Notes: generated by a model from the sequence alone, not told the origin. 64,000 nucleotides of DNA from Eledone cirrhosa (GCA_964016885.1 OZ024748.1:42966001-43030000), one strand, 5' to 3'. Positions 26,640-62,688 are shown, counted from the first letter of the stretch. A program made the numbers and translations.

Positions 26640-27150
26640 AATCTACCAAAAGTTTACGGTAGTGTCCAATCCGTATGAAGAACTCAATGTAATCCGGATA
26701 TCATGAAAAGAGAAGACGCATTCAAAAACTACTTTCGGTGAAAAATAAACGGAAAACAGAGTCAAGATAAATTAATAAAATAATGAATAAACAAAGAAAC
26801 AATTCCTTATATTAAAAAAATTCATCATTTTACGATCGTTTCTAGGATATATATGTGTTAGAGTTGGTATGCATATTCTATAGATCTATGTACAATATTT
26901 ATACAAACTATCAGAGGGAATATACATACCTACACATATATATGCTGTCTTCAGAAATAATCTTATTATTTCTGAAGACAGCATATATATGTGTAGGTAT
27001 GTATATTCTCTCTGATAGTTTGTATAAATATTGTACATAGATCTATAGAATATGCATACCAACTCTAACACATATATATCATAGAAACGATCGTAAAATG
27101 ATGAATTTTTTTAATATAAGGAATTGTTTCTTTGTTTATTCATTATTTTT
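26640..27150 (-). mobile_element. Fold-back Penelope-like insertion (about 185-bp arms plus unique tail)
   Basis: 26777-26961 is a near-perfect inverted repeat of 26965-27149. It is flanked by (TA)n and has a hammerhead in each arm. Confidence 0.7.
26963..27105 (+). ncRNA. Type I hammerhead ribozyme with extended stem II
   Basis: UUAUUAUUU CUGAAGA (26972) - ~105-nt hairpin - GAAAC GAUC GUA (27084-27095) AAAUGAUGA. Stem I is 9 bp including GU pairs, and stem III is palindromic. Confidence 0.7.
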
Positions 27151-27184
27151 TTAATAATTTATATATATATAATATATATATTAA

Positions 27185-27606
27185 AATTCAAATATTAACA
27201 AAAATAGATATTCTTGTGATCAATTAAATTTTATTATACATATTTCAGAGGTACTTGAATCAGGTTCAACAGTACGTCCTCATCAGATAAAATAAAATGA
27301 TACATGACATACCCTCACATGTTAGATGGTTAAGATTTAATCAATTAAGATTTAATCATGTCAGGTTTAATCATGTCAGGTTATGCCATGTATCATTTTA
27401 TTTTATCTGATGAGGACATACTGTTGAACCTGATTCAAGTACCTCTGAAATATGTATAATAAAATTTAATTGATCACAAGAATATCTATTTTTGTGTTAA
27501 TATTTGAATTAATATTAATAACTCTGGAAAATATTTTTACTGTAGAGTGCTTCCAATCTACTGTAAAACTCATTCTTTGATGTACTCATTGAATCTTGTT
27601 TAACTC

Positions 27607-27610
<4 letters not shown>
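27185..27610 (+). mobile_element. Fold-back Penelope-like insertion (about 125-bp arms, spacer, tail)
   Basis: 27185-27311 is inverted against 27383-27510, and the tail runs into (TA)n. Confidence 0.65.
27400..27465 (+). ncRNA. Type I hammerhead ribozyme
   Basis: AUUUUAU CUGAUGA (27407) - stem II with UUGAA/UUCAA - GAAA UAUGUA UA (27458) AUAAAAU, giving a 7-bp stem I. Confidence 0.6.
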
Positions 27611-27638
<28 letters not shown>

Positions 27639-27962
27639 GCTAGTGTGGAAGATAGACGTTAAACGATGATGATGATTATATATATATATATATATCTGTA
27701 TTTTTAACCACTGGTCAATCAATGATAAACATTGATTGCCAAATAAATTAACTATGGAGATATAAAAGATACAGAAGCGAAAACCAAACAAACAGTGAAT
27801 GCGTTCTGTTATTATTTCTGGCAATATTACAACAATATGACCTTCCCCAAGTGTGTATATATATATATATATGTATGTAAAAAGTAAACAGAAATAACAA
27901 CACATCGGTACAGTATATGGAAGGTATATATTAGGTTAACGCTTGATATAGCAGGAAGAGGG

Positions 27963-27998
27963 TCTTAACGTTTCGGACGCTAGTCCTTCATCAGAAGA
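27963..27998 (-). ncRNA. Minimal type I hammerhead ribozyme (PLE type) in a ~190-bp dispersed repeat
   Basis: Minus strand reads UCUU CUGAUGA A GGAC UAGC GUCC GAAA CG UU AAGA. Same family as 43603. Confidence 0.75.
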
Positions 27999-28341
27999 AA
28001 GAATGAGAAATAAAATAGATTAAGGGGATGGGCAGGTTGGAATTGGAAAAAAATGTCTTTAGATAAAAATATTCCAGCTGTAAGAAACCCGGCCAAATTT
28101 AGTCCTCATTGGAGCAAGGTGCAACATGGTCAACTCTGATCAGACTTGCTTCTCGGCGTGGACACAAGCATGGAAAAATGGACACTAAACTGTAATGATG
28201 ATGACACACACATATATGTGTATGTGTGTTTATTGGAGCCATATTATGAGGAAGTGTGTACTGTTGATAATAGTGGTGGCCTGAATATTTCATGAATGAC
28301 TTACATTTCTTGTTTGTCATTTTCTGAAGATAAGTTGCAAA

Positions 28342-28775
28342 TAGAGATATCTACACTGCTGTCGTCTTGCCATGCAATATAGGGGCGGGGGGAGAGTTAG
28401 AGATATCACACTGATGTCATCTAGCAATATAGGGGCGGGGGGAGAGTTAGAGATATCTACACTGCTGTCGTCTTGCCATGCAATATAGGGGCGGGGGGAG
28501 AGTTAGAGATATCACACTGATGTCATCTAGCAATATAGGGGCGGGGGGAGAGTTAGAGATATCACACTGATGTCACCTAGCAATATAGGGGCGGGGGGAG
28601 AGTTAGAGATATCACACTGATGTCATCTAGCAATATAGGGGCCGGGGGGTGGAGTTAAAGATATCACACTGATGTCATCTAGCAATACAATATGGGGGGG
28701 GGGGGTAGAGATATCACACTGATGTCATCTAGCAATATAGGGGCGGGGTTAGAGATATCACACTGATGTCATCCT
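28342..28775. repeat. About 50-bp G-run minisatellite
   Basis: Unit AGAGATATCACACTGATGTCATCTAGCAATATAGGGGCGGGGGGAGAGTT. Confidence 0.9.
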
Positions 28776-28866
28776 CCCATGCAACTTACCGGGGAGTTTT
28801 CTTTCCATAACTAAAGTTTAATTTGAAATATATGTGTGTATGTATATGTATATATATATATATATA

Positions 28867-29310
28867 TATATTAATAAGAGGAATTCCAACTTTGTCTGAT
28901 TTACTCGTTTTATTTGCAAACCTTTAAAATATATATAATATGGTATTATAATGAAATAGTATGATAGAATATTAAATTCTAAGTGTTAATTGAACAAGTA
29001 CTTTCATGCTTTCGCAATCTTCAGGTTCATGATATGTGGTGACAGTCGAGTTTGTAATTTTCAACTGTTGAAAATTGCAAACTCGACTGTCACCACATAT
29101 CATGAACCTGAAGATTGCGAAAGCATGAAAGTACTTGTTCAATTAACACTTAGAATTTAATATTCTATCATACTATTTCATTATAATACCATATTATATA
29201 TATTTTAAAGGTTTGTAAATAAAACGAGTAAATCAGACAAAGTTGGAATTCCTTTTATTAATATAATCTTCACACAATCATACACACCCGTGTATATTTA
29301 CCTATCTATA

Positions 29311-29312
<2 letters not shown>
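28867..29312 (+). mobile_element. Fold-back Penelope-like insertion (about 199-bp arms, essentially no loop, short tail)
   Basis: Palindrome centred at 29066, with (TA)n on both sides. Confidence 0.7.
29103..29141 (+). ncRNA. Minimal type I hammerhead ribozyme
   Basis: UGAAC CUGAAGA U UGC GAAA GCA U GAAA GUAC UU GUUCA. Perfect 5-bp stem I, GAAA-capped stem II, palindromic AGUACU stem III. Confidence 0.78.
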
Positions 29313-29352
<40 letters not shown>

Positions 29353-29356
<4 letters not shown>

Positions 29357-29515
29357 AAAATGTTTGACCCTGATGGCAGAGCTCAAGGCGTTTTGACGGC
29401 TTGAGCTCTGCTGTCGGGTCAAACATTTTCCTATTACCCACTCTACTACCCTAAGTATTGAGTACTCTGGTGCATTATGATCCATCTGGTTCCTTTCCAC
29501 ACCTCCTTCGTTAGA
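29353..29515 (+). mobile_element. Short hairpin-plus-tail element in (TA)n (family also at 34647 and 35710)
   Basis: TAGGAAAATGT...GCAGAGCTCAAG / CTTGAGCTCTGC...ACATTTTCCTA inverted repeat, then tail CTCTACTACCCTAAGTATYGAGTACTCTGGTG. Confidence 0.65.
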
Positions 29516-29627
29516 AACAAATAACTTTTTAATTGAGATGTATGTATATATGTATAATAATAACGAAGACTAAAATGCTAAGGGGGCTCTATGGATTGTG
29601 TGTGTGTATATATATATATATATGTTT

Positions 29628-29957
29628 GGAGACACATGGCTTAGTGGTTAGAGCATTGGCCTTGCAATCGAAAGGTTGTGAGTTCAATTCTCAGACCGGG
29701 TGATGTGTTGTTTCCTTGAGCAAGACACTTTATTTCACATTGCTCCAGTTTACTCAGCTGTAGAAATGAGATGATAGGGACCCCAGTCCCTATCATCTCA
29801 TTCTACAAAGTGGTCGTGGAGGTGCCACGGCAAAAAAGCACCCAGCACTCACTATAAATGAAGTTGGTGTTAGGAAGGGCATCCAGCTGTAGAAATCGAG
29901 CCAAAATCAGTTCCCGTTGCACCCTTGCAAGCAGGGAAAAAGTGGACGTAAAATGAA

Positions 29958-29961: not shown

Positions 29962-30000
<39 letters not shown>

Positions 30001-30004
<4 letters not shown>

Positions 30005-32936
30005 CGCAGATGCTGGAGAGAAGGCATGTGGATGTGTGCTGCATGCAAGATGCAAGAGGTGAGATGGAGAGGTGCCTCTGTGAGACTAATCGCAAGCAAA
30101 CATCTTAGTTATAAACTTTTCTGGGTAGGTAAGGATGATGGGTTAGGGGGAGTAGGCTGAGAGATGGATCAATAAGACAATAGAGGTAGTTCGAGTTAAT
30201 AATCAAATAATTAAGCTTAGGTTAGTTGTAGGCAGGAGACTACTGACAATCATCTCTGCCTATGCTCCCCAAGCAGGCCTAGGTAAAGAAGAGAAAGACT
30301 GCTTTTACGAGCAACTTTTGCAAACAACCGCAATGACTGAGGGCAGAGACATCGTTATGCTAGCAGGAGACTTCAATGGTCATGTTGGACAGCTCCAGGA
30401 TGATTACACTGGGGTACATGGTGGGCACGGTTACAGCTCAAGAAATGAAAAAGGAGTGAGATTTCTTGAATTTTGTGATGCAAGTACACTAACTTCCAGA
30501 AACCTACCAACCACCTAATAACCTACAAATCAGGAAAGCACATAAGCCAGATTGACTTCTTGCTAGTTAGGCAGCGGGACAGGCAGATGGTGTCAAATAC
30601 CAAGGCATACCCTGGGGAAGAATGTACCCCACAGCATAGGTTAGTCATTAGTGATATCTCAGTAAGCAAAAGATGGAATGAGACATACAGGAAGGTGTGG
30701 AGAAGAATGGTCTGGAAGCTAAAAGACCTTTCACTAAAATACAAATTTAGGAAAGCCCTTCAAGATGTGTATGATGAAAAAGAAGACGATTTAGAGACGT
30801 ACGACATAGATAATAACTGGAATTTCTTAAGTGACAACTTACTGCAGGCTACTGATGAAACTTGTGGCTGGAGCAGAGCTCCAACCAGACAGAGTGGCTT
30901 GGTAGTGGAACAGCGCAGTAGATAGGGCTATTAGAGACAAAAGACTAGCATGGAAGGCTTGGAAAAAGGGTGGGAGTAGAGAAGGATATACAGCCGCTAA
31001 GAGAGAAGCTAGACGTCAGGTGTACTTAGCATGCAGGGAGGCTGAGAGTAGGAGGTTTGCCAATGTTCTGCGATGGGAAGATCAGAGGCGTGCGGTGTTC
31101 CACATTGCAAAGCAGTGTGTCAATGCAAATCAGGATGTTGTTGGAGATAAATGTATCCGGAATGATGCCGGTGTACTTAGTGTCACGAATGATCAGAAAA
31201 AGGAGGCCTGGAAATGTCATTATGAGAGACTGATGAATGTGGAGAACGAATGGGAGAGAGAGAAATTACTCTCAGTAGATCCGACAGAGGGACCAGCTAT
31301 TGAGATTGACGAATATAGGGTCCAAGAGGCAATTAAGGAAATGAAAAATGGTAAGGCTGCTGGACCGTCGGGGATAGTTGCTGTGATGCTGAAGGCATCA
31401 GGGTACGTAGGCACTAAACTGGTTGCACGCATCATCAATCAGGCTATATATGGTGGTGTCATACCCAAAGACTGGTGCAGCAGTATTCTCATAAATTGCT
31501 ACAAAGGTAAAGGGGATGCTCTGGAGAGGAGCAATTATAGGGGTATAAAACTGATGGATCAGGTTATGAAAGTGGCAGAAAGGATATTAGCACAACTAAT
31601 TAGAGAAAGGGTCAAACTAGATGAGATGCAGTTTGGTTTTGTGCCTGGGAAAAGTACAACAGATGCCCTCTTCTTGGTGAGACAATTACAAGAGAGGTTC
31701 TGAGAGAAGAATAAGCCACTATACCTAGCCTTTGTTGACCTAGAGAAGGCCTTTGATAGGGTACCCCGATCTGTCATCTGGTGGTCCTTAAGGAAACTAT
31801 GCTTGGGAGGACAGTGCAAACTTTGTACAGAGGTGGTCAGTAAAGTCAGGGTAGGAATGGAGTTTAGTGAGGAATTCCAGATACAAGTAGGAGTACATCA
31901 AAGTTCGGTCCTCAGCCCGCTCTTGTTCATTATAGTCCTCCAAGCCATAACAGAGGAGTTTAAGACTGGCTGTCCATGGGAACTTCTCTATGCTGATGAT
32001 CTGGTTCTTATAGTAGAATCAGTAGAAGAGCTAGAGAATAAATTCTGGCTATGGAAACAGCAGTTGGAAGCAAGAGGACTGAGAGTGAACCTAGCTAAGA
32101 CAAAAGTGTTGATGAGTAGAAATTCCATCAGGGAAAGGGCCATGTTCAATATGCAGAAAAAGAACTGGCATAAATTCTATAAAATGCGCAGAATGCAGAT
32201 CCTGGGTACACAAGAGATGTAGTGGGATAGCAGGCAAACTAACAGGTAGGGAGAAATATGTATGCAGTAGATGTACAGGGAAATTAGACAGTAGAAGTCG
32301 CATTGATAGACACATTTTTCAAATGCAGGCGTGAGCTATAGAAGTGGTGGATAGCTTCCGGTACCTAGGAGATCAGATTAGCATGGGAGGGGGGTGTTCC
32401 GAGGCCATAGTATCTAGAATAAGAACGGGTTGGAAGAAGTTTAGGGAGCTGCTTCCTCTGCGTACGAAAGGCTGGTTATATGATGCCTGTGTGAGGAGCG
32501 CAATGCTGCATGATAGTGAGACTTTGGCAGCGACTGCAGAGGATATGCGACGGCTGGAGAGAAATGAGGCAAGCATGCTCCGTTGAATGTGCAATGTCAA
32601 TATGCATGAACGACCCAGCATAGATGTGTTGAGAGAGAAACTGTGTCTGAGAGGGATAGAATGTAGTGTGCGAGAGAGGAGACTGCGGTGGTATGGACAT
32701 GTGATGCGCATGGAGGATGACCGATGGGTGAAGAAGTGCCAGGAAATGCCAGTTGAAGGAAGACGTGGTAGAGGTAGACCACGAAAAACATGGGCGGAGG
32801 TGGTGAGAACAGACCTCTGATCGCTGAAGCTCACGGTGGAGATGACGAAGGACCGTGACAAGTGGAGAGATGCTGTGCTGAATAAGACCCGTTCCACCCT
32901 TGCAAGCAGGGAAAAGCGGACGTAAAATGATGATGA
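30001..32936 (+). mobile_element. Near full-length decayed RTE-clade LINE (APE endonuclease, RT, Cys-rich insert, C-terminal domain)
   Basis: SAYAPQ, AGDFNGHVG, IDFLLVR, NYRGIKL, QFGFVPGKSTTDA, FVDLEKAFD, LLYADDLVL, RLRWYGHV, GRGRPRKTW and a (GAT)n tail. Several stops (e.g. 31701, 32584) and frameshifts. Confidence 0.95.
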
Positions 32937-33109: not shown

Positions 33110-33141
33110 CTCTTCCCCTCTCTCTCTTTCTCTCTCTCTTC

Positions 33142-34192: not shown

Positions 34193-34646
34193 AGAATATC
34201 AGAGACAGTGAATGTGCTTTTTGTGTAAATGTATTTTTCAGTTCCTAGTTATTCCCATTACGTATTTACAAATGGGTAATAAATGGGATTATGTTATTAA
34301 AATTGTGCAAATTCCATTTGAATGGAGCATTGTTTGTGTTAAGGTAAAACTGTTGAAATGAGGTCATTATTGAAATTATTTGCTTGAATGACACTTCAAT
34401 ACCTGTTTCTTCCGTGTTGAGTAATTGGTCATGATATATAGTCAATATTTGTTCTGGATAGTTAGTTATCCTTTCCTTATATATATAATAGTAGAACACT
34501 GGTGGGTTATCTCCATAGTAGTAGAGCACTCAGTCCATGGGATGAGTTTGGTAGAAGTAGTTCTACAACAGTTAGTTCACCATTTCTGAGAACAAATTGT
34601 TTCACCTTATTTGGATCATCAGCTGGGTTTAAATCCTATATATATA

Positions 34647-34885
34647 TAGGAAAATGTATAACCCCAACAGCAGAGCTCAAGCCGTTCCGACGGCTATTTC
34701 TGGACGTATTTTGTAGGTATTGAATCCGAATCTCTCCTTAAATAAAGTGAGAGTCCAGAAATAGCCGTCGAAACGGCTTGAGCTCTGCTGTCGGGGTCAT
34801 ACATTTTCCTATTACACACTCTACTACCCTAAGTATCGAGTACTCTGGTGCGTTATAGTCCACCTGGTTCCTTACCACACTTACT
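34647..34885 (+). mobile_element. Hairpin-plus-tail element (longer copy of the 29353 family)
   Basis: Arms ~34647-34706 and ~34754-34812, followed by the shared tail. Confidence 0.65.
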
Positions 34886-35515
34886 TCATTATGTCCTCTG
34901 CAGTTGCTGCCCATGTCTCACTACCATGCAACATCGCCCTCCTCACACAGGCATCATACAACCGGCCTTTCGTACGCAGGGAGAAATCCTTCTTCGTCAG
35001 CAGAGGAAGCAGCTCCCTAAACTTCTTCCAACCCGTCCTTATTCTAGATACTATGGCCTCGGAACACCCTCCTCCCATGTTAATCTGATCTCCTGGGTAC
35101 CGGAAGCTATCCACCACTTCTATAGCACCCTCCTGCATTTGAAAAATGTGTCTATCAATGCGACATCTACTGTCTAATTTCCCTGTACATCTACTGCATA
35201 CGTATTTCTCCCTACCTGTTAGTTTGCCTGCTATCCCGCTACATCTCCTCTGTACCCAGGATCTGCATTGTGTGCATTTTATAGAATTTATGCCAGTTCC
35301 TTTTCTGCATATCGTACATGGCCATTTCCCTGACGGAATCAGAGTTTTGTCCTCTTTTCTACTCAACACTTTTGTCTTAGCTAGGTTCACTCTCAGTCCT
35401 CTTGCTTCCAACTGCTGTTTCCATAGCCAGAATTTATTCTCTAGCTCCTCTACTGATTCTGCTATAAGAACCAGATCATCAGCATAGAGAAGTTCCCATG
35501 GACAGCCAGTCTTAA
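34886..35515 (-). mobile_element. Internal RTE LINE fragment (RT to Cys-rich insert)
   Basis: KTGCPWELLYADDLVL...KWPCTICRK...HGSETW. Highly similar to 31960-32550. Confidence 0.92.
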
Positions 35516-35531
35516 ATATATATATATATAT

Positions 35532-35710: not shown

Positions 35711-37658
35711 TGGTTCCTTCACACACTTCCTTCATTATATATATATAATGAAGGAAGTGTGGTAAGGAACCAGGAGGACCATAACGCACCAGAGTACTCG
35801 ATACTTAGGGTAGTAGAGTGGGTAATAGCCGTCGGGGTCCTGACTCTGTTCATATATATCATCATCATCATATAGTTTTTACGACCACTTTTCCATGCTT
35901 GCATGGGCTGAACGGGTCCTTCTCAGCAGGGCATTTCTCCACTTGTCACGTTTTCTGTATATATATATGCAATGATGATATATATATATATACACACGTG
36001 TGAGGCAGTTGATTTGGCAAAGTCAGTAGAGCATCAGTTGATCCAAGTCTCTGTATTTTCAGTTCAAGTCCTGCCAAGGTCCACTTTACCTTTCACCCAG
36101 TGCTGGTGTCCTCTCTCTCTCTCTCTCCTTCCAGCTGTCACATCATTGAAAATCCACATAAATTGAGGGGCCTCTCTGCATCTTATTTTTGTTTTATGTA
36201 CTGTATCAACTTGAGTATAAGGTGACCCCACTATTTTATTTTACGTCTGAGAAATGGGCAAAAATCCAAACTTTATTTTCATAGAATTTGAAGTTGGTGA
36301 AAATCACCAAAATATTGACTCCTGAGTATAAGACCATCCCTCCCATTTTGTGTGTGTGTGTGTGTGTTGGGGAGTTTTACATATATTCAAGTATATATGG
36401 TAATATTTTGTCAAAAATTAAAGAACCTCTGATACTTTCCCAGTTTCTCCATGTTGATTCTTTCTTTACCGTATTTCTTATGCAATAAACCATTTCAATA
36501 AATTAATTAAACATTTCTGAGAATAAAATATTTATTCCATTAAGATGGTATTTGTATCAACCTAACAAAATGGTTTTATATTAAATTATATCGGTGGATT
36601 TTAGTTCAAATAGGAAGGAACTCTTTAAAAATGTGAGGCTTTTCATAGAAATAGAGTTGGTTTTATTTAGGCTGGGTTGGTATTAAATGGGTTAATATTG
36701 TAGTTTGGAAGAACTGCAGAAGTACAAACTGCTGCACCTCCCTCTCTCTGTCCCTACCATCTTATGTTTGACTAACTCAAACTCCTACTCCACCCTCTTC
36801 TAATTAGTGATGAAAAGCCAGTCACTCCTCTTCTCCCTCCCTGTAAACTCTACCTATTTTTTCTTTCTCTTTTGTCATTACTACCCCTCTTCCCCTCTCC
36901 ATCATAACTACCCCTATTCCCCACCCCCATACTACTCCTATTGCCCCACCCCCACCATAACTGCCTCTATTCCTCCATCATAACTACCCCTATTCCCCAC
37001 CCCCATACTACTCCTATTGCCCCACCCTCACCATAACTACCCCTATTCCCCACCCTCACCACCAGAACCATTCCCATATTTTCACTGACTCCATTCCTCC
37101 ACAATACAAATTAGAGACACAAGACTAAAAACTAGAGTAAATAAAAGTAGTTTACTTCATATTTATATTTACCTTATATTTCCTGATATTTCAGGGTTTA
37201 GGACCCCTCTTTTAAAAGAAAGGAAATATAGTAGTGATGATGATGGTGGTGGTAGTGGTAGTGGTGGTGGTGGTAACTGGCTTTCTTCCTTATCAATCTT
37301 AACTAAAATTATGTACAACAACCATATATACTCGAATATAAGGCAACCCCACTCTTACCATTGTTTTTTTGTTGATTTTTTTCTTTGTCACATATTTCTT
37401 GGCTTAAATACAAGTATATGCGTATATATGGTAAGTTTTAATGATCAGCCTAAATAAAACCAGTTCTGTAACAAAGCTACACATTTTTAAAGAGTTTCTT
37501 CCAATTTGAAATAAATCCCTTAATTTGACATAAAACCCTAATATTTGAGACATTTAATTGGGGTTTCTTTTAAAGTCCCTCAACATAATTTGATATAAAA
37601 CCCTTAATATTTAAGACATTTTAATTAGGGTTTCTTTTCCTTTTCTTCTCTTTTGCAG

Positions 37659-39690: not shown

Positions 39691-41050
39691 CAGGGAAAGC
39701 AGATGTTAAAATGATTATGTATATATACATAGAATATGCACAAATTTATGCACAGTTTCATATGGCATTTGGTAATATTTACTGTTCTCTCTGTGTGTGT
39801 GTGTGTAATATATATATATATATATATAATGTATAATAAACAATACAATATAATTACCTCATTACCAGAGGTTTCCCGAATAACACGAATACGAAAAATG
39901 TCCTCATTCGTTCGTCGGACAAGGCAATTTAAAACATAGTGAAATATTTGAAAAGTCTCCTCAAGAAAGGCAAGAGTTTAACGGGCAAAAAATATATAAA
40001 TAAAAGTAATTCAAGAGATATATAAAAAAATAAGAAAATATAGTTAGGGTATGTGTATATGTATGTATATACACTCACAAATGTACATATGTGTGTATGT
40101 ACAAATGCATGTGTATGGTGAAAGTGTGTGCGTAAGTACATATATGAGGGCAAGTATATTTGTGTATATGTGACCTCAAATACGTAGTATATAATGAGTT
40201 GAAATAGAAATTGTAAGATAATATAGTTAACACGCATCCAGATACAGGTATTAAATACACATACGAGTATGAAAGCACGCGTATAAACACACGCGCGGTC
40301 ACTTATATGCGGAAGATAAAGAGGGAAGGGCGTGTAATAGTAAAAAGAAGTGTCATTCTCGATATATGTATAAAAATGAAACAATATATGAGAATGAAAA
40401 AATTTTTTTAATCAAAGAGAAAGTAATCAATTAACACTAGAGAAAATAAAATAAACATAGGTACGCACGTACACGCACATATATATATATAAAATATTTA
40501 TACACACAAATACGTACAGACAAAAACGCATGCATCCGTACACACGAGGCATGTATATATATATATCGCCACATGTATATCTAATCACACGTACGTACGC
40601 AACTATATATATATACATATATACATACACACCCATACATACATACACATATACCCACATATACATACACATACATATACATTCACCCGCATACACACAC
40701 ACGTATAAATAAGTATGTAAAAAACATAGATATAAAAACACACATTTATATACGTACGCACGCACACATACGGAGGCGTTCATATACAGAACGTATACAC
40801 ACATATTCACGCTCACACGCATAGATACAGATTATAAACCACCCGTACAAATATAAAATCGGCTGCGAAACAACAGAATATATCTGGAGTGGAAAACTCA
40901 AGTGACATGTGATATCAGGTAGTGAAAGAAAATGGGGAAGTAAAATGTGGAATGTGAAGATATTAGGTAAGTGAATCGAAAAGTAGGGGCGGGGGGTGTT
41001 ATTGGTGGATGTGAAGTAAAAATAAAATTAAATCAGAAAGAGAAGTCAAA

Positions 41051-41509
41051 AGTGAATGCCCATTACAAGGTAAATGCAACACCAAAGCTATTGTATATGC
41101 GGCTAAAGTGACAACCATCAGCAACAACCAGCCAGCCACCAGTGAACGATATGTGGGTATGACACAAGACAAATTCAAAACACGTTATTACTCACATGTC
41201 GCATCTTTCCGACATCCAGAAAAAAGATTCACAACAGCTCTGGCTAGCAGAATATGGGATTTGAAAGACCAAGGTATCCAATATAAATTGGATTGGTCAA
41301 TTTTGAACCAATCTAAAGAATATGCAAGAGGAACAAGAAGATGCACACTCTGCATAAGTGAAAAATATTGGATATTACAGAACCTTAAATCACCAAAAAC
41401 CTGCCTAAATACAAAAACAGAAATTTTCACCAGTTGCCCACACATGAAATCACACTTGCTTTCCAGCTCATATAAACTTAACTCACTTTCAGATACTTAT
41501 CCTCCATAA
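41051..41509 (+). pseudogene. GIY-YIG endonuclease domain of a Penelope-like element (no RT, no true start)
   Basis: ECPLQGKCNTKAIVYAAKV...YVGMTQDKFKTRYYSH...WSIL...CTLCISEK...LNTKTE...CPH gives the VY..YVG motifs, catalytic R, E and N, and Cys/His clusters. Confidence 0.85.
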
Positions 41510-42574
41510 ACTCTTATTCTTCACTTTCCTTAAATTATCCTCTTTACAGACTTCTCTTTCTGATTTAATTTTATTTTTATTTTTACTTCACATCCACCAG
41601 TAACCCCCCCCCCCCCTACTTTTCGATTCACTTACCTAATATCTTCACATTCCACATTTTACTTCCCCATTTTCATTCACTACCTGATATTACATGTCAC
41701 TTGAGTTTTCCACTCCAGATATATTCTGTTCTTTCGCAGCTGATTTTATATTTGTACGGGTGGTTTATAATCTGTATCTATGCGTGTGAGCGTGAATATG
41801 TGTGTATACGTTCTGTATATGTATATGAACGCCTCCGTATGTGTGCGTGCGTACGTATATAAATGTGTGTATGTGTGTTTTTATATCTATGTTTTTTACA
41901 TACTTATTTATACGTGTGTGTGTATGCGGGTGAATGTATGTGTATGTATATGTGTGTATATGTATATGTATGTATATATGTATATATATATATATATAGT
42001 CGCGTACGTACGTGTGATTAGATATACATGTGGCGATATATATATATACATGCCTCGTGTGTATGTATGTACGCATGCATGCGCTTTTGTCTACGTATTT
42101 GTGTGTATAAATATTTTTTTATATATATTTGTGCGTGTACGTGCGTACCTATGTTTATTTTATTTTCTCTAGTGTTAATTGATTACTTTCTCTTTGATTT
42201 AAAAAATTTTTTCATTCTCATATATTGTTTCATTTTTATACATATATCGAGAATGACACTTCTTTTTACTATTACACTCCCTTCCCTCTTTATCTTCCGC
42301 ATATAAGTGACCGCGCGCGCGCGTGTTTATACGCGTGCTTTCATACTCGTATGTGTATTTAATACTTGTATCTGGATGCGTGTTAACTATATTATCTTAC
42401 AATTTCTTTTTCAACTCATATACGTATTTGAGGTCACATATGCACAAATATACTTGCCCTCATATATGTACTTACGCACACTCTTTCACCATACACATGC
42501 ATTTGTACATACACACATATGTACATTTGTGAGTGTATATACATACATTTACATATGTATGTATATACATATGT

Positions 42575-43095
42575 AAATGTACAAGCTGAAGCATATAGAC
42601 AATATGCCCCCCCCCCCCCCTCCCGCAAGATGGTCGTGGAGGTGCCACGGAAAAAAAGCACCCAGCCCACACTGTAAAGTGGACGTGTAGGCGCCACGGA
42701 AAAAAGTACTCAGCACTCACGGTAAATGAGGTTGGTGTTAGGAAGAGCATCCAGCTGTAGAAACCAAGCCAAATCAGTTCCTGTATGAGCAAGGCATGGT
42801 CAGCCGACCAGACACTGCCCACAACAGGACAACCCGTCTAACCCATGCTAGCGTGGAAGAACGGACGTAAAACGGTGATGATGATGATGATGATGATACA
42901 TATGTAGGTAACATGGTAAAAACCTCCCAGTCCACATTGTAAATGTAGCTGGTGTTAGGAAGGGCATCCAGCCGTAGAAAACCCACCAGACAGTCCTATA
43001 CGAGCAGGACAACCAATCTTGCTTCAAGTGGGGAAAACTCCCGTCCAAACCCATGCAAGCGTGGAAGATGGATGTTAAACGATGATGATGATGAT
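42575..43095 (+). mobile_element. Two tandem RTE-UTR/SINE fragments nested in the Penelope arm
   Basis: Each has GGTGTTAGGAAGRGCATCCAGC and a CCCATGC...(GAT)n tail. They are absent from the left arm. Confidence 0.8.
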
Positions 43096-43400
43096 ACACA
43101 TACCCAAACTATATTTTCTTATTTTTTTATATATCTCTTGAATTACTTTTATTTATATATTTTTTGCCTGTTAAACTCTTGCCTTTCTTGAGGAGACCTT
43201 TTCAAATATTTCACTATGTTTTAAATTGCCTTGTCCGACGAACGAATGAGGACGTTTTTTGTATTCGTCTTATTCGGGAAACCTCTGGTAATGAGGTAAT
43301 TATATTGTATTATTTATTATACATTAAATCTTGCTCTGGTACTTACATAGAGCACTCTTCACTCCTATGACTTTTTCATTTTTCAACGGAAACTTCAATA

Positions 43401-43461
<61 letters not shown>

Positions 43462-43602
43462 TCATCATCATTTTACGTCGCTTTTCCCTTTTTCCCTGCT
43501 TGCAAGAGATGTCAACATGAATGGACCTGTTATTTTTATCTAAAGACATTTTTTCCTATTCCACCCCACCCGTCACCTCAGTCTATTTAATTTCTCATTT
43601 TT

Positions 43603-43638
43603 TCTTCTGATGAAGGACAAGTGTCCGAAACGTTAAGA
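43603..43638 (+). ncRNA. Minimal type I hammerhead ribozyme (PLE type)
   Basis: UCUU CUGAUGA A GGAC AAGU GUCC GAAA CG UU AAGA. Stem II is kept while its loop differs from the 27963 copy. Confidence 0.78.
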
Positions 43639-44031
43639 CCCTCTTCCTGCTATATCAAGTGTTAACCTATTATATCCCTTCCATATACTGTACCGATTGT
43701 GTTGTTATTTCTGTATGTATATTTGCTGCCTTCATTCTGAAGCAGGACAGTTAATGTGACTGTGTTGGTGTCAATCTACCAGTTAATATATCAACTGTTA
43801 TTATCACTCCACAGTTCATCAACTCTAACTTTACCTCCTCTACTATTTCTATTCCTCTCAACTGTTATTCTTCTATTCCTCTCAACTGTTATTCTTCTAT
43901 TCCTCAACTGTTATTCTTCTATTCCTCTCAACTGTGATTCTAGTTGGTAAAGATGTCTTTTTAAAATAACATTTTCCTCAAACTATGATTGTTTTAGTCA
44001 ATGACTTGTTATTCCATGTCGAAACTAAGGC

Positions 44032-45442: not shown

Positions 45443-45816
45443 GGAAGCACATGGCTTAGTGGTTAGAGCATTGGGCTTGCAATCGATAGGTTGTGAGTTC
45501 AATTCTCAGACTAGGTGATGTGTTGTTTCCTTGAGCAAGACACTTTATTTCACATTACTCCAGTTTACTCAGCTGTAGAAATGAGATGATAGGACTGGGG
45601 TCCCTATCATTCCACTGCAAAGTGGTCGTGGAGGTGCCATGCCAAAAAAGCACCCAGCCCACACTGTAAAGTGGACGTGTAGCGCCACGGAAAAAAAAGC
45701 ACCCAGCACTCACTGTAAATGAGGTTGGTGTTAGGAAGGGCATCCAGCTGTAGAAATCAAGCCAGAATCGGTTCCCGTCCCACCCTTGCAAGCAGGGAAA
45801 AGCGGACGTAAAATGA

Positions 45817-45854: not shown

Positions 45855-47607
45855 CATCATCATCATCATCGTTTAACATCCACTTTCTATGCTAGCATGA
45901 GTTAGACGGGTTGTCTCATTTGATACAAGTTGGGCCAGTTGTCTGTGTCTTGCTCATGTAGAACTAATTTCTACAGCTGGATACCCTTCCTAATGTCAAC
46001 CACATATATGATGACTAGTAAGACATAACTTGCAAAAATATGCATGTATATTGTTATATGTATATGTATGTGTGTTTGTCAGTCACACAGAAAATATACA
46101 CATGTAGCAAAAATATAATGTATATAGTTATATGAATATGTATGTTGTGTATATGCAGTCACACAGAAAATATACACATGTAGAAAAAATATGTATATAT
46201 ATGAATATGTATGTATTTTGTGTATATGCAGTCACACAGAAAATATACACGTGTATATAGTTGTATAGTATTACTTCCTTTATATATATGTTTACCAAAC
46301 AATAATAGTTGGTGCCTAAGTAGGAAAAGAATTTGTTATAATTCAGGTGAATAATAAAACCAGTCAGATGTTGAACTACTAAAACATTCTTATTGTTGCA
46401 TTCATGGTCTAGATTCATAAAATCTGGGTCAATTTCTGTGTTGTTCATTATTTATGTAATATGTAAATCAAGGAGGCATCTCTTGTGTACATGCATAGCT
46501 GCATATAAATACCAAATGCAACAGTCTCTGTTATGTATGCATATACATCCTCCATTTATTTTACATAAATCAAAACGAGAATAAATTAAGTTTGTTAATT
46601 TACAAAACAATGGAAACTTGGAGATAATCTTCATATATGTTTGAATATCCTGTTGATATATATTTAGATTCCACCTCTGTTTGTCAGCTTTTCCCATCAT
46701 TCAAGAGCAGAGAGTAGAGAAATATGTTAATGTTTGCTAATACCATAAATCTAGTTTATTGTTCTTATGTGTAAGACTCTTCTTATTTATTCATTATTCC
46801 AAATGTCCGATAATTAATTATATGTACTTTTCTTTTTTTCTTGTTTATTTTGTTTCATGATTATCTTCTTGTATAATCTTAAGTTTTGAATTAATGTAAC
46901 CCATTTTCTCTCCCCACATCTTCGCTCCCATAAAAGATAAAAGAAATTTGTCTAAAAAAAACTTCCTGGTTGTGATTAAACAAAATTCAGAAATTAGCCT
47001 GTCTGTCGATTGGAACACTTTATAGAGTAATGGTAGTTGTACTGTTAATGTTACTTAAAACTTAGATGTTCTGTAATAATAGTCTAAATAAATGTATCAG
47101 AAGTGATCTAATTAGATCTTTAAATATTCATTTTATTAAGACTAAATAGTGAGTCTTGTTACTTCTCACATGGTCATCCACCCTGTGAGAAGCAGGTGAA
47201 ACTCCAGAGTAACAAGGCTCACTATTTAACCTTAATAAAATAAATATTTAAAGCCTACTTAGGTATTGAGTATTCTTTTCTGTCAGCTGTCAACTACATA
47301 CGGATGTGTGTGTGTGTGGTAATAAGTAAGGACGAGGCGTGAAATTATTAAATTTATTCAGGTGTGATGTGCGTTCTGTGATTGATCAACTCAAGGTTTG
47401 ATCTCTATTGATCAGGCCCAACTCTTAAATCAAGAACATTTCAAAGCTCAAATATGATTTTATAGTCCACAGTGAGAGTTTAATCCAGTTTGATAAATTT
47501 CCAGTAAATAAAGAATAATCAATTAAATGATTTAATTTAATCTAAATCCTAGCTATTCTTTTTTTAACAAAATGAAAAATAACCAAGGTGTCCTACATGA
47601 GTGAAAG

Positions 47608-47817
47608 TATAAGGAAAAAAGATGAAATCGAAAATACAACTGGAGTCTTTTTTTTTAAAAATATATATATTTATTTGGTTCTTTTACCAGTTTCGCAGTT
47701 CTTCTGCTTTTCAAAAGTAGAATTGAGATGGAGGGTTTGTGGTTTTTCTCTGAACCAAATAAATATATATATTTAAAAAAAAAAGACTCCAGTTGCATTT
47801 TCGATTTCATATTTTTT

Positions 47818-47824
<7 letters not shown>
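47608..47824. repeat. Inverted repeat (about 72-bp arms) abutting (TA)n, with a degenerate hammerhead-like spacer
   Basis: Arms 47608-47681 and 47752-47824. The minus-strand spacer reads UUGAAAA GCAG AAGAA CUGC GAAAC UG GUA. Confidence 0.6.
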
Positions 47825-49047: not shown

Positions 49048-49395
49048 GGAGGCACATGGCTTAGTGGTTAGAGCATTGGCCTTGCAATCAAAAGGGTGTG
49101 AGTTCAATTCTCAGACCGGCTGATGTGTTGTTTCCTTGAGCAAAGCACTTTATTTCACATTGCTCCAGTTTACTCAGCTGTAGAAATGAGATGATAGGGA
49201 CTGGAGTCCCTATCATTCCACTGCAAAGTGGTCGTGGAGGTGCCACGGGAAAAAAGCACCCAGCACTCACTGTAAATGAGGTTGGTGTTAGGAAGGGCAT
49301 CCAGCTGTAGAAATCAAGCCAGAATCAGTTCCCGTCCCACCCTTGCAAGCAGGGAAAAGTGGACGTAAAATGAAATGATGATGATGGTGATGATA
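49048..49395 (+). mobile_element. SINE family A, full length
   Basis: Same as 29628 and 45443. Confidence 0.88.
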
Positions 49396-57296: not shown

Positions 57297-57416
57297 GTTT
57301 ACGGCCATATCACGCTGAAAACACTGGTTCTCGTCTGATCACCGAAGTTAAGCAACGTCGAGCCTAGTTAGTACTTAGATGGGTGACCGCTTGGGAACCC
57401 TAGGTGCCGTAAGCGT
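57297..57416 (+). pseudogene. 5S rRNA retrocopy (full-length 120 nt, poly-A tailed)
   Basis: TACGGCCATATCACGCTGAAA...GATCACCGAAGTTAAGC...AGTACTTAGATGGGTGACCGCTTGGGAA...GCCGTAAGC. Followed by A17 instead of a T-run terminator, and present as a single intronic copy. Confidence 0.9.
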
Positions 57417-57435
57417 AAAAAAAAAAAAAAAAAGA

Positions 57436-57910: not shown

Positions 57911-58123
57911 GTAAGTAACAAAATGTAATCTTTGATTAATTTTTTGGTATTTTATTAAACAAAGCATTAGATAAAGTAAATATTTAAAATCTAAATACAA
58001 TCAATATTTTATTCTGAATACCTCTGTTGTTTTAAGTATTTTACTGCATCGGGCTGACATTACGCATAAATTCTTACATTTAAAAAAAATTGTAAAGAAA
58101 TAAATACCTTGATCAAATTTGTT

Positions 58124-59097
58124 TTTACTGATCGACTGTTATTACTGATCGACTGTTATTACTGAGCGACCGTTATTACTGATCGACTGTTATTACTGAT
58201 TGACTGTTATTACTGAGCGACCGTTATTACTGATCGACTGTTATTACTGATCGACTATTATTACTGATCGGCTGTTATTACTGAGCGACCGTTATTACTG
58301 ATCGGCTGTTATTACTGAGCGACTGTTATTACTGATCCGCTGTTATTACTGATCGACTGTTATTACTGATCGACTGTTATTACTGATCGCCTGTTATTAC
58401 TGATCGGCCGTTATTACTGATCGACCGTTATTACTGATCGACTGTTATTACTGATCGGCTGTTATTACTGATCGACCGTTATTACTGATCGACCGTTATT
58501 ACTGATCGACCGTTATTACTGATCGACTGTTATTACTGATCGGCTGTTATTACTGATCGGCTGTTATTACTGATCGGCTGTTTTTACTGATCGACTGTTA
58601 TTACTGATCGGCTGTTATTACTGATCGGCTGTTATTACTGATCGACTGTTATTACTGATCGGCTGTTATTACTGATCGACTGTTATTACTGATCGACTGT
58701 TATTACTGATCGGCTGTTATTACTGATCGGCTGTTATTACTGATCGACTGTTTTTACTGATCGACTGTTTTTACTGATCGGCTGTTATTACTGATCGGCT
58801 GTTATTACTGATCGACTGTTATTACTGATCGACTGTTATTACTGATCGGTTATTTTTACTGATCGACTGTTATTACCGATCGACTGTTATTACTGATCGA
58901 CTGTTATTACCGATCGGCTGTTATTACCGATCGGCTGTTATTACCGATCGGCTGTTATTACCGATCGGCTGTTATTACCGATCGGCTGTTATTACCGATT
59001 GACTGTTATTACCGATCGACTGTTATTACTGATCGGTTATTTTTACCGATCGACTGTTATTACTGATCGGTTATTTTTACCGATCGACTGTTATTAC
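58124..59097. repeat. 17-bp minisatellite, about 57 copies
   Basis: Unit TTATTACTGATCGRCTG. Confidence 0.96.
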
Positions 59098-60259
59098 AGT
59101 TATTTTCTGCATCTAGGACTTTCACATTTTCAGATCTCTCACACATTTGGTGCTTTGATAATTCGTAAGATTTGTTTACATAGCTGTATGTTTTGGGTAC
59201 ATAAGGGTGGCCAGGTAAAAGACACACCATTACCTGGCACTGAAACAGTAAAGATGTTAGTGATTGTATATAATAATAATTTCTTTATTAGCCACACAGG
59301 GCTCACATTAAGGAAACATTAAAAACGGTACAGGACGATACAGTGTGTGGGGGGTGGGATATAAAATAAAATTTATGACAGAGACTACTACTAATAATCT
59401 AAACTAATCTAAAGAAAGGTCTACGGGACTGCGTACGGTTTATTTTTTTTTATCCCATTAGTAAAATAAGCTGGATTACTTTGAATAAATAATGAATGAA
59501 TATTACATAATTTATCTATTAAATTTCGTAAACAAAAATAATTTCGTAAAAATAGATAATTTAAAATTGACTTCTTTTCAAAGTTGTACTTCCGGTATAT
59601 CGTTGCCACCACCACCACTTCAACTACCATTTATATAGAAAGAGAGAGTGTGTGATGTCAACACTTCCGGTGGCGATCACTTAAATAAACATACTAATTT
59701 TCCGTCACTAATTTTCTCCTAATACAGTTTATATATAATATCGTCTTTTTTTAATGTATCATGGATTACGTTACTGATCACATAAGACAGTGTAACAACG
59801 TCTTCGTTCAATTTCTGTTTATATTGTCAATTACGATTTTATTTTTGTTGTATCATATCTACATGTATATATACTTGCGTATAATATCAATGTACACACT
59901 ACACATGCTAGCAGAAAACCACCCTGGTAGTAATAATAATAATAGTTTCTTTATTAACCATAGAGGGTTTACATCAAGAAAATGTCAGGTAAATAATAAT
60001 GATAATAATAATGATTTCTTTCTTTATTTATTTATTATTTATTTATTTATTATTTATTTATTTATTTATTTATATAATTATATATATATTTATATAATTA
60101 TATATTATCATTATATATTAATTTATATAATTTTATATCATTATATATTAATTTATATATATTTATATAATTATATATTATCATTATATATTAAATAATA
60201 ATGATAATAATAATGAAAATACATTGTAATTCTTTATATTTCTGTTTCGTTTCTGTCAG

Positions 60260-60397
60260 GTTGGTATGTGAATGTTTGAAACAAATTCTTCTAAGCTGGC
60301 CAACCCATATCTTAGAGAAACACATTGCAATACTTCAGGATGCTATAAAAAGGGGAATCAGTGATCCAGATTCAGAAACTAGGGCACATTCCAGAAA
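60260..60397 (+). CDS. CLASP: CLASP exon (TOG2)
   Basis: LVCECLKQILLSWPTHILEKHIAILQDAIKRGISDPDSETRAHSRK. Phase 2-2. Confidence 0.96.
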
Positions 60398-60816
60398 GTA
60401 AGTTACTTTGGTTGGAAACATTTTAACAAAAAAAATAAATATATTTATATACTCTTTTACTCTTTTACCTGTTCCAGCCATCCGGCTGAGGCCATGCTGA
60501 GGCACCGCCCTTGAAAAGTGAAATATATATATATAGTGTAGTTAATACAAAACATTGTGAGATATGTAATAAAAACCCCACATTTGAAAAGAAATATACT
60601 GGGTAAAACATTACTTTGTTCTGTTTTAGTCATCCTTTGCCCTTTGTATTTTCCTACTACGTTGTACCAGCTTTTTGTAAATTATCAGTCAGCATAAAGT
60701 GGGAAGTATTGGTAGATAAGGAAGTCAGGACCAAGTATGCAGATACGATTGCATCCAAATTCAGAGAACTCCCTGAGCAAATGGATGACAGCCTAGTAAG
60801 CTGATATTTAGTTAAT

Positions 60817-61082
60817 GGAGGTGCATGACCTAGTGGTAAGGTTGTGTGTTGTATTCTTGAAAAAAATAATTCATTTCACATTGCTCCAGTATACTCACTG
60901 GTGCCAAGCTGTATCAGCCATTGCCTTTCCCATGGACAACATCGGTAGCATGGGGCGCGGTGATTGCTATGTATGGATGATTGCTGGTCTTCCACAAACA
61001 ACCTTGCCCAGACTTGTGCCTAGGAAGGGAACTTTCTAATGCAAATCCCATGGTCATTTGTGACTGAAGGGTGTCTTTACCC
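60817..61082 (+). mobile_element. Older tRNA/CORE-like SINE (family C, inverted partial copy at ~50320-50460)
   Basis: Head TGACCTAGTGGTAAG, ATTTCACATTGCTCCAGT shared with family A, and body GCTGGTCTTCCACAAACAACCTTG. Confidence 0.65.
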
Positions 61083-61203
61083 TTATTTTTTCCAACAGAA
61101 CTTATTGGCTACTTTTGAAACCTTTAATTTCTTCTTATTTCTTCCAATCCAAACACATGTATTATACTCATGTAAATAATTGTATATAATTATTTTCCAA
61201 CAG

Positions 61204-61407
61204 AGCTTATTGGCATTTCGCTACACATTTCCGAGATCAAGCTGATGCACTGCTGAACTCATTGGATATTGCTAAACAAAAAGTGCTCCAAGGGGAGCTA
61301 AGTAATTCTTCCAGTAATAATTCTTTAAATAGTGCCGACTCTCTGAAGTTACCGGCATCGAGGTCACGTTCTGCTAGTCAAGATCGAATTGGTTTTGATT
61401 CTTTAAC
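61204..61407 (+). CDS. CLASP: CLASP exon (end of TOG2, start of Ser-rich region)
   Basis: AYWHFATHFRDQADALLNSLDIAKQKVLQGELSNSSSNNSLNS...SRSRSASQDR. Phase 2-2. Confidence 0.95.
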
Positions 61408-61500
61408 GTAAGTTATATAGATATTAATTTTTTTTTTATTCCTCAAAAATGTTTGAACTGTTTTTCCTTAATAAATAGTTTTCTGTTATATTTATCTGCA

Positions 61501-61534
<34 letters not shown>

Positions 61535-61767
61535 CACTCCTCATCTGTCATCTGTGACACCCTCATACCTCACCTGTGGCACCCTCATTCTTATCACCTG
61601 TGATACCTACCACCTGTAACACCTCACTCCTGTCACCTGTGATACTTACCACCTGTGGCACCATATCTAACCTGTGACACCTCACTCCTGTCACCTGTGA
61701 CACCCTCACACCTCTTATACCTTACATCATATCAGAAATCTCCTGACTGTAGCTATCTCTATTGTAG

Positions 61768-61823
61768 ACGTGGTGGTACCCGAAGATCAGTAACTTCGAA
61801 AGTCGCTCCAAGCCCACGACAAG
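61768..61823 (+). CDS. CLASP: CLASP small exon (Ser/Arg-rich linker)
   Basis: TGTAG acceptor and GTATGA donor. RGGTRRSVTSKVAPSPRQ is in phase with the previous exon. Confidence 0.7.
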
Positions 61824-62416
61824 GTATGACGATATTTCTTCTTAACTCCTTTCTTCTGGAAATTTCTTCTATGTAGTTTGTTTGTTTGTTACAGTTCGTG
61901 TGAATTGTTTTTTTTTTTAAAGAAATATTTTAGATTTTCGGTAAAATATTTTTCTACCTTTAAACAAAAAACTCAAAGAATAAACCAGGTGACTTTCTCA
62001 GACATTTTTTGATTTCGTTTTTAACATAAAGAAGTTTTTATTCAGCATTTTTTCTTATTTTTCTTATTTTTCATATCTTCTCATTCATCTTCACACATTT
62101 TATTTGTTTGCTAGCTTTTCTTTCTGCCCTAGATTTAAAAAAAAACAACACAAACAAAAACTATAATAAATGACTGAAAATCCCGAAATATATGTCAGTT
62201 AAAGGAAAGAAAGGACATTTAAGGCTTTCTTTCTCGCCGTTAGTAATATTCAGTTTCTTTTTTCATGCCCCTCATCCAGCAACACACCATAGACATATTG
62301 GTAGCAGTGGTGTTTGTAAGTATTTTTAGGTACTTTGTCATATCTGGCAAAACCTCTTGCTTTCTGCTGCTTCATTTGTCTTCTTCATAACCACACATTC
62401 TCATCTCTCATCTCTT

Positions 62417-62449
<33 letters not shown>

Positions 62450-62461
62450 ATATATATATAT

Positions 62462-62688
62462 AGTTTTAATATAGATGAGATTCTACAGGATTAGAACTGT
62501 TTCATTCTTTTGAAATCATCAGGAATCTGGGTATAAAGATTTATTTTTTGATACCCAGATTCCTGATGATTTCTAAAGAATGAAACAGTTCTAGTCCTGT
62601 AGAATCTCATCTATATTAAAACTTTTATACTCTATGTATTGAGTACCTTACTTACTGTGGTTACCTCCAATTCAACCCGGAATAACAT
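62462..62688 (+). mobile_element. Fold-back Penelope-like insertion (73-bp arms, 16-nt loop, tail) in (TA)n
   Basis: 62462-62534 is inverted against 62551-62623, with (TA)n on both sides. Confidence 0.72.
62557..62607 (+). ncRNA. Type I hammerhead ribozyme, canonical core
   Basis: AGAUUC CUGAUGA U UUC UAAA GAA U GAAAC AG...CU GUA GAAUCU. Stem I is 6 bp, stem III is 4 bp, and the predicted cut is after 62601. Confidence 0.82.

Follow-up and report, generated by a model that had tools for sequence, protein, structure and literature searches.

Results

Fold-back insertions and their hammerheads

The window analysed here, a stretch of 64,000 nucleotides (nt) from Eledone cirrhosa (G000:C8:42966001-43030000, where G000 is our label for the source genome, a 3.0-Gb assembly), carries a series of fold-back insertions, each made of inverted arms with a short tail and each lying inside or adjoining a (TA)n tract. 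These insertions are almost certainly 5'-truncated copies of Penelope-like elements (PLEs). Families are labelled A (39824-43403), B (28867), C (27187), D (62462), E (29353, 34646 and 35745), F (47608), G (47123), H (26645) and J (27994 and 43607). A preliminary description of the window had pointed to five main fold-backs in (TA)n and several weaker ones, and all of these are present.

The first of the five main insertions, a family H copy at 26645-27160 (minus), consists of a tailed arm on the minus strand (26645-26961) and a tail-less arm on the plus strand (26965-27160), within which inverted arms of 191 nt and 98% identity were mapped at 26771-27155. Its hammerhead cores at 26954(-) and 26972(+) have a 105-nt hairpin as stem II, and its short-window minimum-free-energy fold lacks stems I and III. 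The family C copy (27187-27612, plus) has arms of 124 nt and 97% identity at 27198-27495, cores at 27286(-) and 27407(+), and a tail running to 27612. Family B (28867-29303, plus) has arms of 199 nt each, 98% identical (28867-29265), with minimal hammerheads at 29024(-) and 29108(+). The long fold-back of family A (39824-43403, plus) consists of nested arm pairs spanning 39824-43329 and a tail at 43329-43403, with U4C-variant cores at 39918(-) and 43235(+); its right arm is interrupted at ~42585-43095 by the later insertion of a dispersed repeat. Family D (62462-62688, plus; fold-back mapped at 62462-62623) has cores at 62522(-) and 62563(+) with a 4-bp stem III.

Family E is represented by two mini fold-backs, at 29353-29512 (plus) and at 34646-34890 (plus; fold-back mapped at 34646-34812, with a 47-nt spacer), and by a third remnant at 35745-35845 (minus). 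Both mini fold-backs had been listed as weaker cases and do fold back, the first keeping at most, and the second only, the 3' half of the family hammerhead. A family G fold-back at 47123-47305 (plus), absent from the preliminary description, has lost its first core in the window copy, while relatives have it intact. Family F (47555-47822, minus; fold-back mapped at 47649-47784) has a single hammerhead at 47714(-) with a U3-A8 core. The order of (TA)n, arms and tail described earlier needs one correction: at 26640-27150 and at 47608 the tailed arm is the minus strand, so that the tail is at the left. Nor are the tails unique: each belongs to its family's sequence, for which candidate copies number in the hundreds to thousands.

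With a relaxed type I descriptor, 11 hammerhead motifs were found in the window, against 0-1 per shuffle in 10 block shuffles of it. Two more, 27407(+) by separate inspection and 39918(-) by exact match, bring the total to 13, of which 10 belong to the five main insertions. Hammerheads had been assigned to the arms of four of these insertions, with the one at 26640-27150 left out; in fact all five carry the motif in both arms, that copy with its 105-nt stem II hairpin included. A further correction concerns the core at 43235/39918, which is a U4C variant. At E<=1, Rfam returned no hammerhead on the window, its matches being microRNA-like hairpin noise and one 5S ribosomal RNA (rRNA). In family E the hammerhead has a U3-A8 core and a 5-bp stem III, and the subfamilies of family D show compensatory changes in stem I. 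The U4C change, which reduces hammerhead activity in vitro (PMC3088659), is present in 34 of 38 tail-selected arms of family A versus 7 of 28 arms selected by their open reading frame (ORF). Deviations within families amount to 6/1500 in hammerhead cores versus 149/16227 in flanks, a comparison that is uninformative because the copies are near-identical.

Family J occurs as solo copies at 27880-28060 (minus, core 27994, no inverted arm) and 43549-43720 (plus, core 43607), each with a minimal hammerhead. At 51922 (minus), adjoining a TA tract, there is a third, degenerate J-like hammerhead in which GAAA is changed.

Coding partners and clades

Candidates for further copies were collected across the genome and 40 first-look candidates per family were scored; the candidate totals, which are not copy numbers, were 1,925 for A, 473 for B, 2,351 for C, 1,442 for D, 4,196 for E, 520 for F, 2,227 for G and 623 for H. 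Copies within families are 94-99% identical, which suggests recent activity. The frame at 41015-41509 (plus), the end of the family A ORF with its CxCX5C linker and GIY-YIG endonuclease (EN), gave 57,651 first-look candidates, of which 150 were scored, all at least 91% identical.

The PLE reading of the preliminary description is borne out. For family A the endonuclease lies inside the window, and the partner search that had been proposed found longer copies joining A, B, C, D, E and H to frames for reverse transcriptase (RT) and/or GIY-YIG (for D in locus L270, for H in L265 and L261). Tandem copies of the pseudo-long terminal repeat (pLTR) occur in L274 (a full tandem copy of family B), L256 (the partner of family C), L339 and L261. 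The arms are high-copy and joined to RT-GIY-YIG ORFs; they are neither single-copy sequence nor parts of terminal-inverted-repeat (TIR) transposons with TA target-site duplications. No protein partner was found for families F, G and J.

The class of the insertions is known because these partners, and the motifs of the Hydra and Neptune clades in them, match described PLEs. Family A has a 719-amino-acid (aa) frame with the motifs RWK (36), DKT (113), YRDD, CxCX5C, CxxC and CxH; its 711-aa protein was modelled by AlphaFold2 with a predicted local distance difference test score of 93.5, and its best fold match in the PDB is the telomerase TERT. Pfam had no match for the family A or H proteins, and a sequence search of the PDB returned nothing useful. 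Families A and H share the CxCX5C linker, CxxC and CxH around the endonuclease E and N, and no CCHH; the linker also occurs in D and E, RWR with DKT in E, and RWR in C. In C, D, E and H the Hydra motifs are present as far as the fragments cover, and identity among the Hydra-type families of this genome is 40-53% versus 23% to B. By these protein motifs and pairwise identities, rather than by a tree with reference proteins, families A, C, D, E and H are assigned to the Hydra clade. Nematis was ruled out for them by the CxCX5C linker (not CX2-5CxxC) and the lack of CCHH. Family B has GxKF, DKG, YLDD and a CX4CX2C linker, with Pfam RVT_1 and GIY-YIG just below cut-off, and would be Neptune-type, although its linker, which Nematis also has, does not distinguish Neptune from Nematis.

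Two of these proteins have further peculiarities. A natural copy of family B (L274:3012-6679) has a 478-aa frame overlapping and ahead of the 775-aa RT-EN frame, either a frameshift or two ORFs, and an element-encoded TA-rich patch at its tail end is enclosed by a long stem. The family H protein (L263:2035-3102, L265:2298-4133) has an Asn/Thr-rich insertion after the RT, resembling the N-rich inserts of rotifer PLEs (PMC3846280).

A twin hairpin in the Hydra 5' untranslated region

The tails of otherwise unalignable families have a bulged hairpin in common, of the form RCUC-stem-loop-stem-UH-GAGY. This hairpin 1 lies at 26682-26762 (minus) in family H, where it has a long loop and stands at the start of a ~135-nt tail, at 27521-27548 (plus) in C, at 43333-43353 (plus) in A and, with a shortened inner stem, at 62629-62644 (plus) in D; the three family E copies have it at 29440-29463, 34818-34841 and, in the tail of the minus-strand remnant, 35796-35819. 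In the window copy of family F no RCUC motif was seen, and the ~40-nt tail of the family B copy has a different hairpin without RCUC.

We surveyed 456 hammerhead motifs, in 43 clusters, from the fetched sequence of the same genome; for 315 of the motifs the next simple repeat was 85 nt or more away. The strict hairpin was found downstream of the hammerhead in 95 of these 315 regions, versus 1 in the reverse complement and 2.0 in shuffled sequence. The hairpin with a TA tract 25-80 nt downstream occurred 18 times in 400 kb versus none in 4 shuffles. It was present in 11 of 33 hammerhead clusters tested, as well as in E (27/30) and G (13/20 fetched copies), and absent from family B (0/61) and from clusters 7, 8, 10 and 13. 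Its inner triplets vary between families yet remain paired, G-U pairs being tolerated. The fold z-scores of hammerheads and hairpins in single windows were mostly weak. A second hairpin (hairpin 2) lies just beyond the tail end and before the ATG in all four Hydra families with read-through copies (A, C, E and H); D and G offered no such copy.

Outside this genome, 78 loci of related proteins were taken from metagenome contigs at 38-48% identity to the query; in 51 the ORF was matched from close to its beginning and preceded by 140 nt or more, and 45 of these were distinct. At least one hairpin was found in 35 of the 45 and two in 22. The two controls yielded 3/45 and 0.7/45. Twin hairpins are spaced 57-70 nt apart, and the distance from hairpin to protein match is 35-130 nt. 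The search imposed no pairing on the inner stem. Inner pair 1 is nevertheless Watson-Crick in 63/66 cases (shuffle mean 37.5, maximum 51), pair 2 in 40/61 (17.4) and pair 3 in 28/40 (10.2), each exceeding all 5,000 shuffles, whereas pair 4 (16/33) is not above the shuffles; these counts take no account of relatedness. By eye, the hairpin can also be seen in three of six published Hydra consensi (File S7, PMC8557442), with both copies in Hydra-1_Ajap. We conclude that the Hydra 5' untranslated region (UTR) holds two copies of a predicted bulged hairpin with compensatory pairing.

Copies end just upstream of the hairpins

Every family has two classes of 3' copy end. Ahead of hairpin 1 the most frequent breakpoint is 4-6 nt away (families A, C, D, E, G and H); ahead of hairpin 2 it is 1-4 nt away once TA microhomology is allowed for (A, C, E and H). 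Offsets were measured only within the 20 nt before each hairpin, leaving 74 copies unclassified; among TA-ended copies ending in that range, 224 of 259 end 1-9 nt before the hairpin. Of the five ends that could be measured in metagenome loci, four have a hairpin 6-11 nt further on. Since the ends cluster just upstream of each hairpin, the tail (~55-140 nt) is the span between the two sites. Copy ends lie at short TAT/ATA matches to the target, and both start sites of the Hydra families here have 2-6 nt of TA microhomology. The twin hairpin and its fixed offset to both ends appear to be new: our literature search, which did not extend to bioRxiv supplements, Repbase notes, subscription papers or supplementary figures such as Figs S1-S2 of PMC11167929, returned no account of the hairpin or of twin priming in PLEs.

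Of 165 head-to-head pairs of arms, 132 join a tailed to a tail-less arm, 4 are both tailed, 4 are both short and 25 belong to neither class. In the 132, the 5' ends of the two arms are within 10 nt of each other in 73; beyond that margin, the tail-less arm extends further 5' in 33 pairs and the tailed arm in 26. In 36 unselected pairs the corresponding numbers are 21, 13 and 2. Where the tail-less arm is the longer, the excess is as much as 285 nt, and a tail-less end also occurs on long arms that carry the ORF (L016, L265). An overlap of 1-10 nt is present at the junction in 54 of the 132 pairs. Arms differ by 1-6% and end at family-specific sites, most copies are one-armed, and the inner junction varies between copies. 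The two arms share minor variants in family E (0.54 versus 0.10 shuffled) and H (0.98 versus 0.24). Neither copy end maps to the hammerhead cleavage site.

What, then, sets the apex of the fold-back? In family B it lies 24-38 nt after a TATA box in 19/19 cases, in C in 10/12 and in F in 8/13. For family D the TATA box predicts an apex at -6, and a start at most ~12 nt from the core was seen in 16 of 20 unselected copies. A TATA box and initiator (Inr) in a pLTR have been noted earlier (PMC3846280). We infer that the apex is the 5' end of the transcript. The hammerhead cleavage site was rejected as the apex, as the ends do not map there.

Hammerhead load of the genome

In forty evenly spaced 10-kb stretches of the genome there are 33 hammerhead motifs, against 1-2 in all in their shuffles; 28 have a C3 core, in 17 stretches, five of these motifs lying in one array. 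Extrapolation suggests 2.1x10^5 hammerheads per genome (bootstrap 1.1-3.2x10^5). The large ribozyme load proposed from the window is thus matched genome-wide, and so is the preference for TA, with a TA tract at most 220 nt downstream in 27 of 28 sampled motifs against a background of 26%. Published counts are ~2,000, 4,000 and 9,000 minimal motifs (PMC4209133) and 14,255 tandem retrozymes (10.64898/2026.07.22.740005), a loose comparison, as descriptors differ.

One array (L316:630-4790; G000:C3, ~280008600-280012800; also L290) has 13 near-identical 311-bp tandem units with a type I hammerhead each and an inverted arm at its 5' end, all inside (TA)n, and is retrozyme-like with the fold-back signature of PLEs. 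It alone shows tandem hammerhead units without a coding partner; the window insertions are single truncated pLTRs, and the retrozyme half of the preliminary interpretation is not needed for them. Further hammerhead families with a stem II of 63-97 nt make up clusters 17, 18, 20 and 22 (e.g. L279:8140, L267). Such long forms of stem II are frequent in this genome, and standard descriptors would miss them.

Other sequences in the window

PLE copies chain into TA tracts beside earlier copies, as at 26645-27612, 28867-29512 and many fetched loci. A hairpin with 42-nt arms at 21273-21368 ends at a TA tract, with no hammerhead seen. Satellite arrays occupy 4-4134, 4391-7626 and 58120-59097, with periods of 41, 34 and 17 bp. 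A decayed RTE-like long interspersed element (LINE) with a PHD-like finger lies at 30000-32930, with an opposite-orientation fragment, 94-99% alike, at 34885-35516. The 5S rRNA match (57297-57415, 108 bits) is present in one copy. Three tRNA-like heads just below the Rfam cut-off (29637-29694, 45451-45512 and 49057-49114) are probably tRNA-derived short interspersed elements.

Discussion

Inverted truncated pLTRs, tails, hammerheads and a bias for (TA)n have already been described for PLEs (PMC8557442, PMC3846280, PMC4209133), as have opposite-strand hammerhead pairs and the U3-A8 core (PMC4209133), which makes the fold-back design less surprising than it was rated in the preliminary description. 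What that description missed is the Hydra clade and its twin hairpins. Twin priming, from two start sites set by hairpins on a single RNA, is in our view the probable origin of the inverted-arm-plus-tail shape. Each hairpin would bind one RT-endonuclease protomer, placing two protomers on one RNA, and the GIY-YIG domain would nick both strands of the (TA)n tract. Each nick would then prime cDNA synthesis just 5' of one hairpin on the same RNA, with short TA pairing, and the two cDNAs would run toward the RNA 5' end and be joined head to head, often by 1-10 nt of microhomology, the tail being the stretch between the two start sites. Tiny copies could arise when the enzyme uses the 5' pLTR of the mRNA: the cDNA would run off at the transcription start, ~30 nt after the TATA box, leaving 150-450-bp footprints in which the hammerhead is carried along uncleaved and does not set the fold. 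On balance we also favour, somewhat more cautiously, a fuller version for the Hydra clade, in which each of the twin hairpins docks one RT protomer and fixes the start a few bases upstream, like a template-boundary element. Twin priming would then be the normal route, accounting for both the tail and the inverted pLTR of PLEs and leaving behind ~200,000 hammerhead motifs, well above printed counts. In vitro work on a Poseidon PLE found that both target strands are cut and extended, that two internal start sites bound the tail, and that RNA downstream of the start sites is needed while hammerhead cleavage is dispensable (PMC11167929).

Several observations weigh against twin priming from the hairpins, besides the relatedness behind the pairing counts and the narrow range in which offsets were taken. 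Families B and F form the same shape without the RCUC hairpin, which is therefore not needed for this architecture in PLEs generally. The strict motif matched only 2 of 50 copies in family A, because the inner stem of A is bulged, and the metagenome 5' regions had no motif in 10/45 and only one copy in 13/45. At the apex, family D pairs lie within TATA range in 3/11 cases, in a set dominated by search-selected copies; the TATA rule fails in family E (2/51), which fits only with a post hoc TATA-like word at +14; and H and G show no obvious TATA, their apices clustering at the 5' edge of stem I. Shared arm variants are absent in B (0/10, one column) and within shuffle range in C, D, F and G, and where they occur they are equally predicted by snap-back or later gene conversion. 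Unequal arms could stem from deletions in an old palindrome, and two enzymes on one RNA would need strand displacement. TA microhomology blurs copy ends by several bases, and young, tail-bearing copies are over-represented among the fetched loci, because most of these are the best matches to window queries.

The strongest competitor, which we regard as unlikely though worth serious attention, keeps the same elements and has the inverted arm formed by snap-back self-priming of one cDNA or RNA, hairpin 1 stopping return synthesis and later deletions at the palindrome centre making the arms unequal. Self-priming has been proposed from junction palindromes (PMC3846280), and the arms that share variants, the 73 of 132 pairs with 5' ends within 10 nt and the 54 with overlapping junctions would all suit it; the tail-less arm, however, is often the longer one, by up to 285 nt and in 13 versus 2 of the unselected pairs, and ORF-bearing arms end at the tail-less site. 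The tail end, where no return synthesis stops, also has a second identical hairpin, and in a related PLE both strands are extended in vitro. A somewhat smaller chance falls to hairpins that serve another step, such as ribonucleoprotein assembly, translation control or DNA recognition by the endonuclease, with ends set by TA microhomology or by EN resolution of an intermediate and close to the hairpins only because the hairpins flank the recognition region. Their position 35-130 nt before the protein match and the copy ends at TAT/ATA target matches are in keeping with this, EN-mediated resolution has been suggested as the source of the tail (PMC8557442), and tail DNA is needed for recognition by the D. 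virilis EN, as recounted in PMC11167929. It does not readily explain why six families, with loops up to 60 nt different in length, all keep 4-6 nt between end and hairpin 1 despite other TA-like words in the vicinity, and the tolerance of G-U pairs fits RNA.

Far less credit goes to two other explanations. That the insertions are non-autonomous retrozymes spread via hammerhead-cleaved circular RNA is highly improbable: the hammerheads in every arm and the 13-unit 311-bp array elsewhere in the genome would suit it, and a PLE origin of retrozymes has been argued (10.64898/2026.07.22.740005), but the window copies are single rather than tandem, neither end lies at the cleavage site, the arms are continuous with RT-EN ORFs, and half of the ribozyme is missing from E copies. 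The TA-flanked long inverted repeats also recall miniature inverted-repeat transposable elements or TIR DNA transposons with TA duplications, or else assembly palindromes. Here the odds are close to nil: the arms are unequal, differ by 1-6%, end at family-specific sites and are joined to RT-GIY-YIG ORFs, the inner junctions vary and most copies are one-armed.

How tandem and inverted pLTRs form, and why the tail is one-sided, has been named an open problem (PMC8557442, PMC3846280), and the in vitro study that located two start sites only bracketed the protein-binding region (PMC11167929). A duplicated covarying motif at a fixed offset from both ends would offer a mutational handle on the insertion of an element whose RT is sister to telomerase and, if the hairpin start-site reading is true, it would explain the long-puzzling shape of inverted copy plus tail. 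The hairpin could also be used as a clade marker for tiny non-coding Hydra remnants, missed here by Rfam and Pfam, and the genome offers a natural library of hammerheads with long stem II and variant cores.

Finally, we would like to place these insertions among known systems, where they are new members of known PLE clades with a newly seen cis-signal. Twin priming is known from LINE-1, where two target nicks prime two cDNAs on one RNA that are joined by microhomology; there the second primer is used at variable internal sites and inverts a different segment. In the elements described here both sites are fixed and the two cDNAs would cover the same segment, giving a palindrome. Family B resembles Neptune-clade PLEs in GxKF, DKG, YLDD, the CX4CX2C linker, cysteines within the GIY-YIG core, a minimal hammerhead with palindromic stem III and a ~40-nt tail, and differs in the 478-aa frame ahead of the 775-aa RT-EN of L274. 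Non-LTR retrozymes (10.64898/2026.07.22.740005; PMC7761336) likewise have type I hammerheads of pLTR origin and dispersed monomers, whereas the copies in the window derive from autonomous parents and do not form tandems; the definition fits only the L290/L316 array.

The published Hydra-clade PLEs (Craig et al. 2021, PMC8557442) are the closest in build, with a single ~710-aa ORF, RWK, DKT, the CxCX5C linker, CxxC and CxH around the GIY-YIG E and N, no CCHH, a pLTR hammerhead, (TA)n insertion and an inverted 5'-truncated copy. The clade was published as small, with ~27 families, whereas in this genome a single family yields 57,651 first-look candidates; tails measure ~55-140 nt here versus 30-40, and many hammerheads here have a long stem II or variant cores. 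The consensus files of that paper contain the twin hairpin, of which we could find no mention in its accessible text. In mechanism, the nearest system is the Poseidon element PAc of Anolis (Frangieh et al. 2024, PMC11167929), which shares two internal RT start sites bounding the tail, cutting and extension of both target strands, an AT-rich target, dispensable hammerhead cleavage and a predicted dimer; the main text, as accessible, offers no explanation of the inverted arm. PAc starts in an AC-rich stem-loop inside the ORF, with no target homology, whereas both sites described here belong to the 5' UTR; each is immediately 5' of a separate hairpin copy and has 2-6 nt of TA microhomology.

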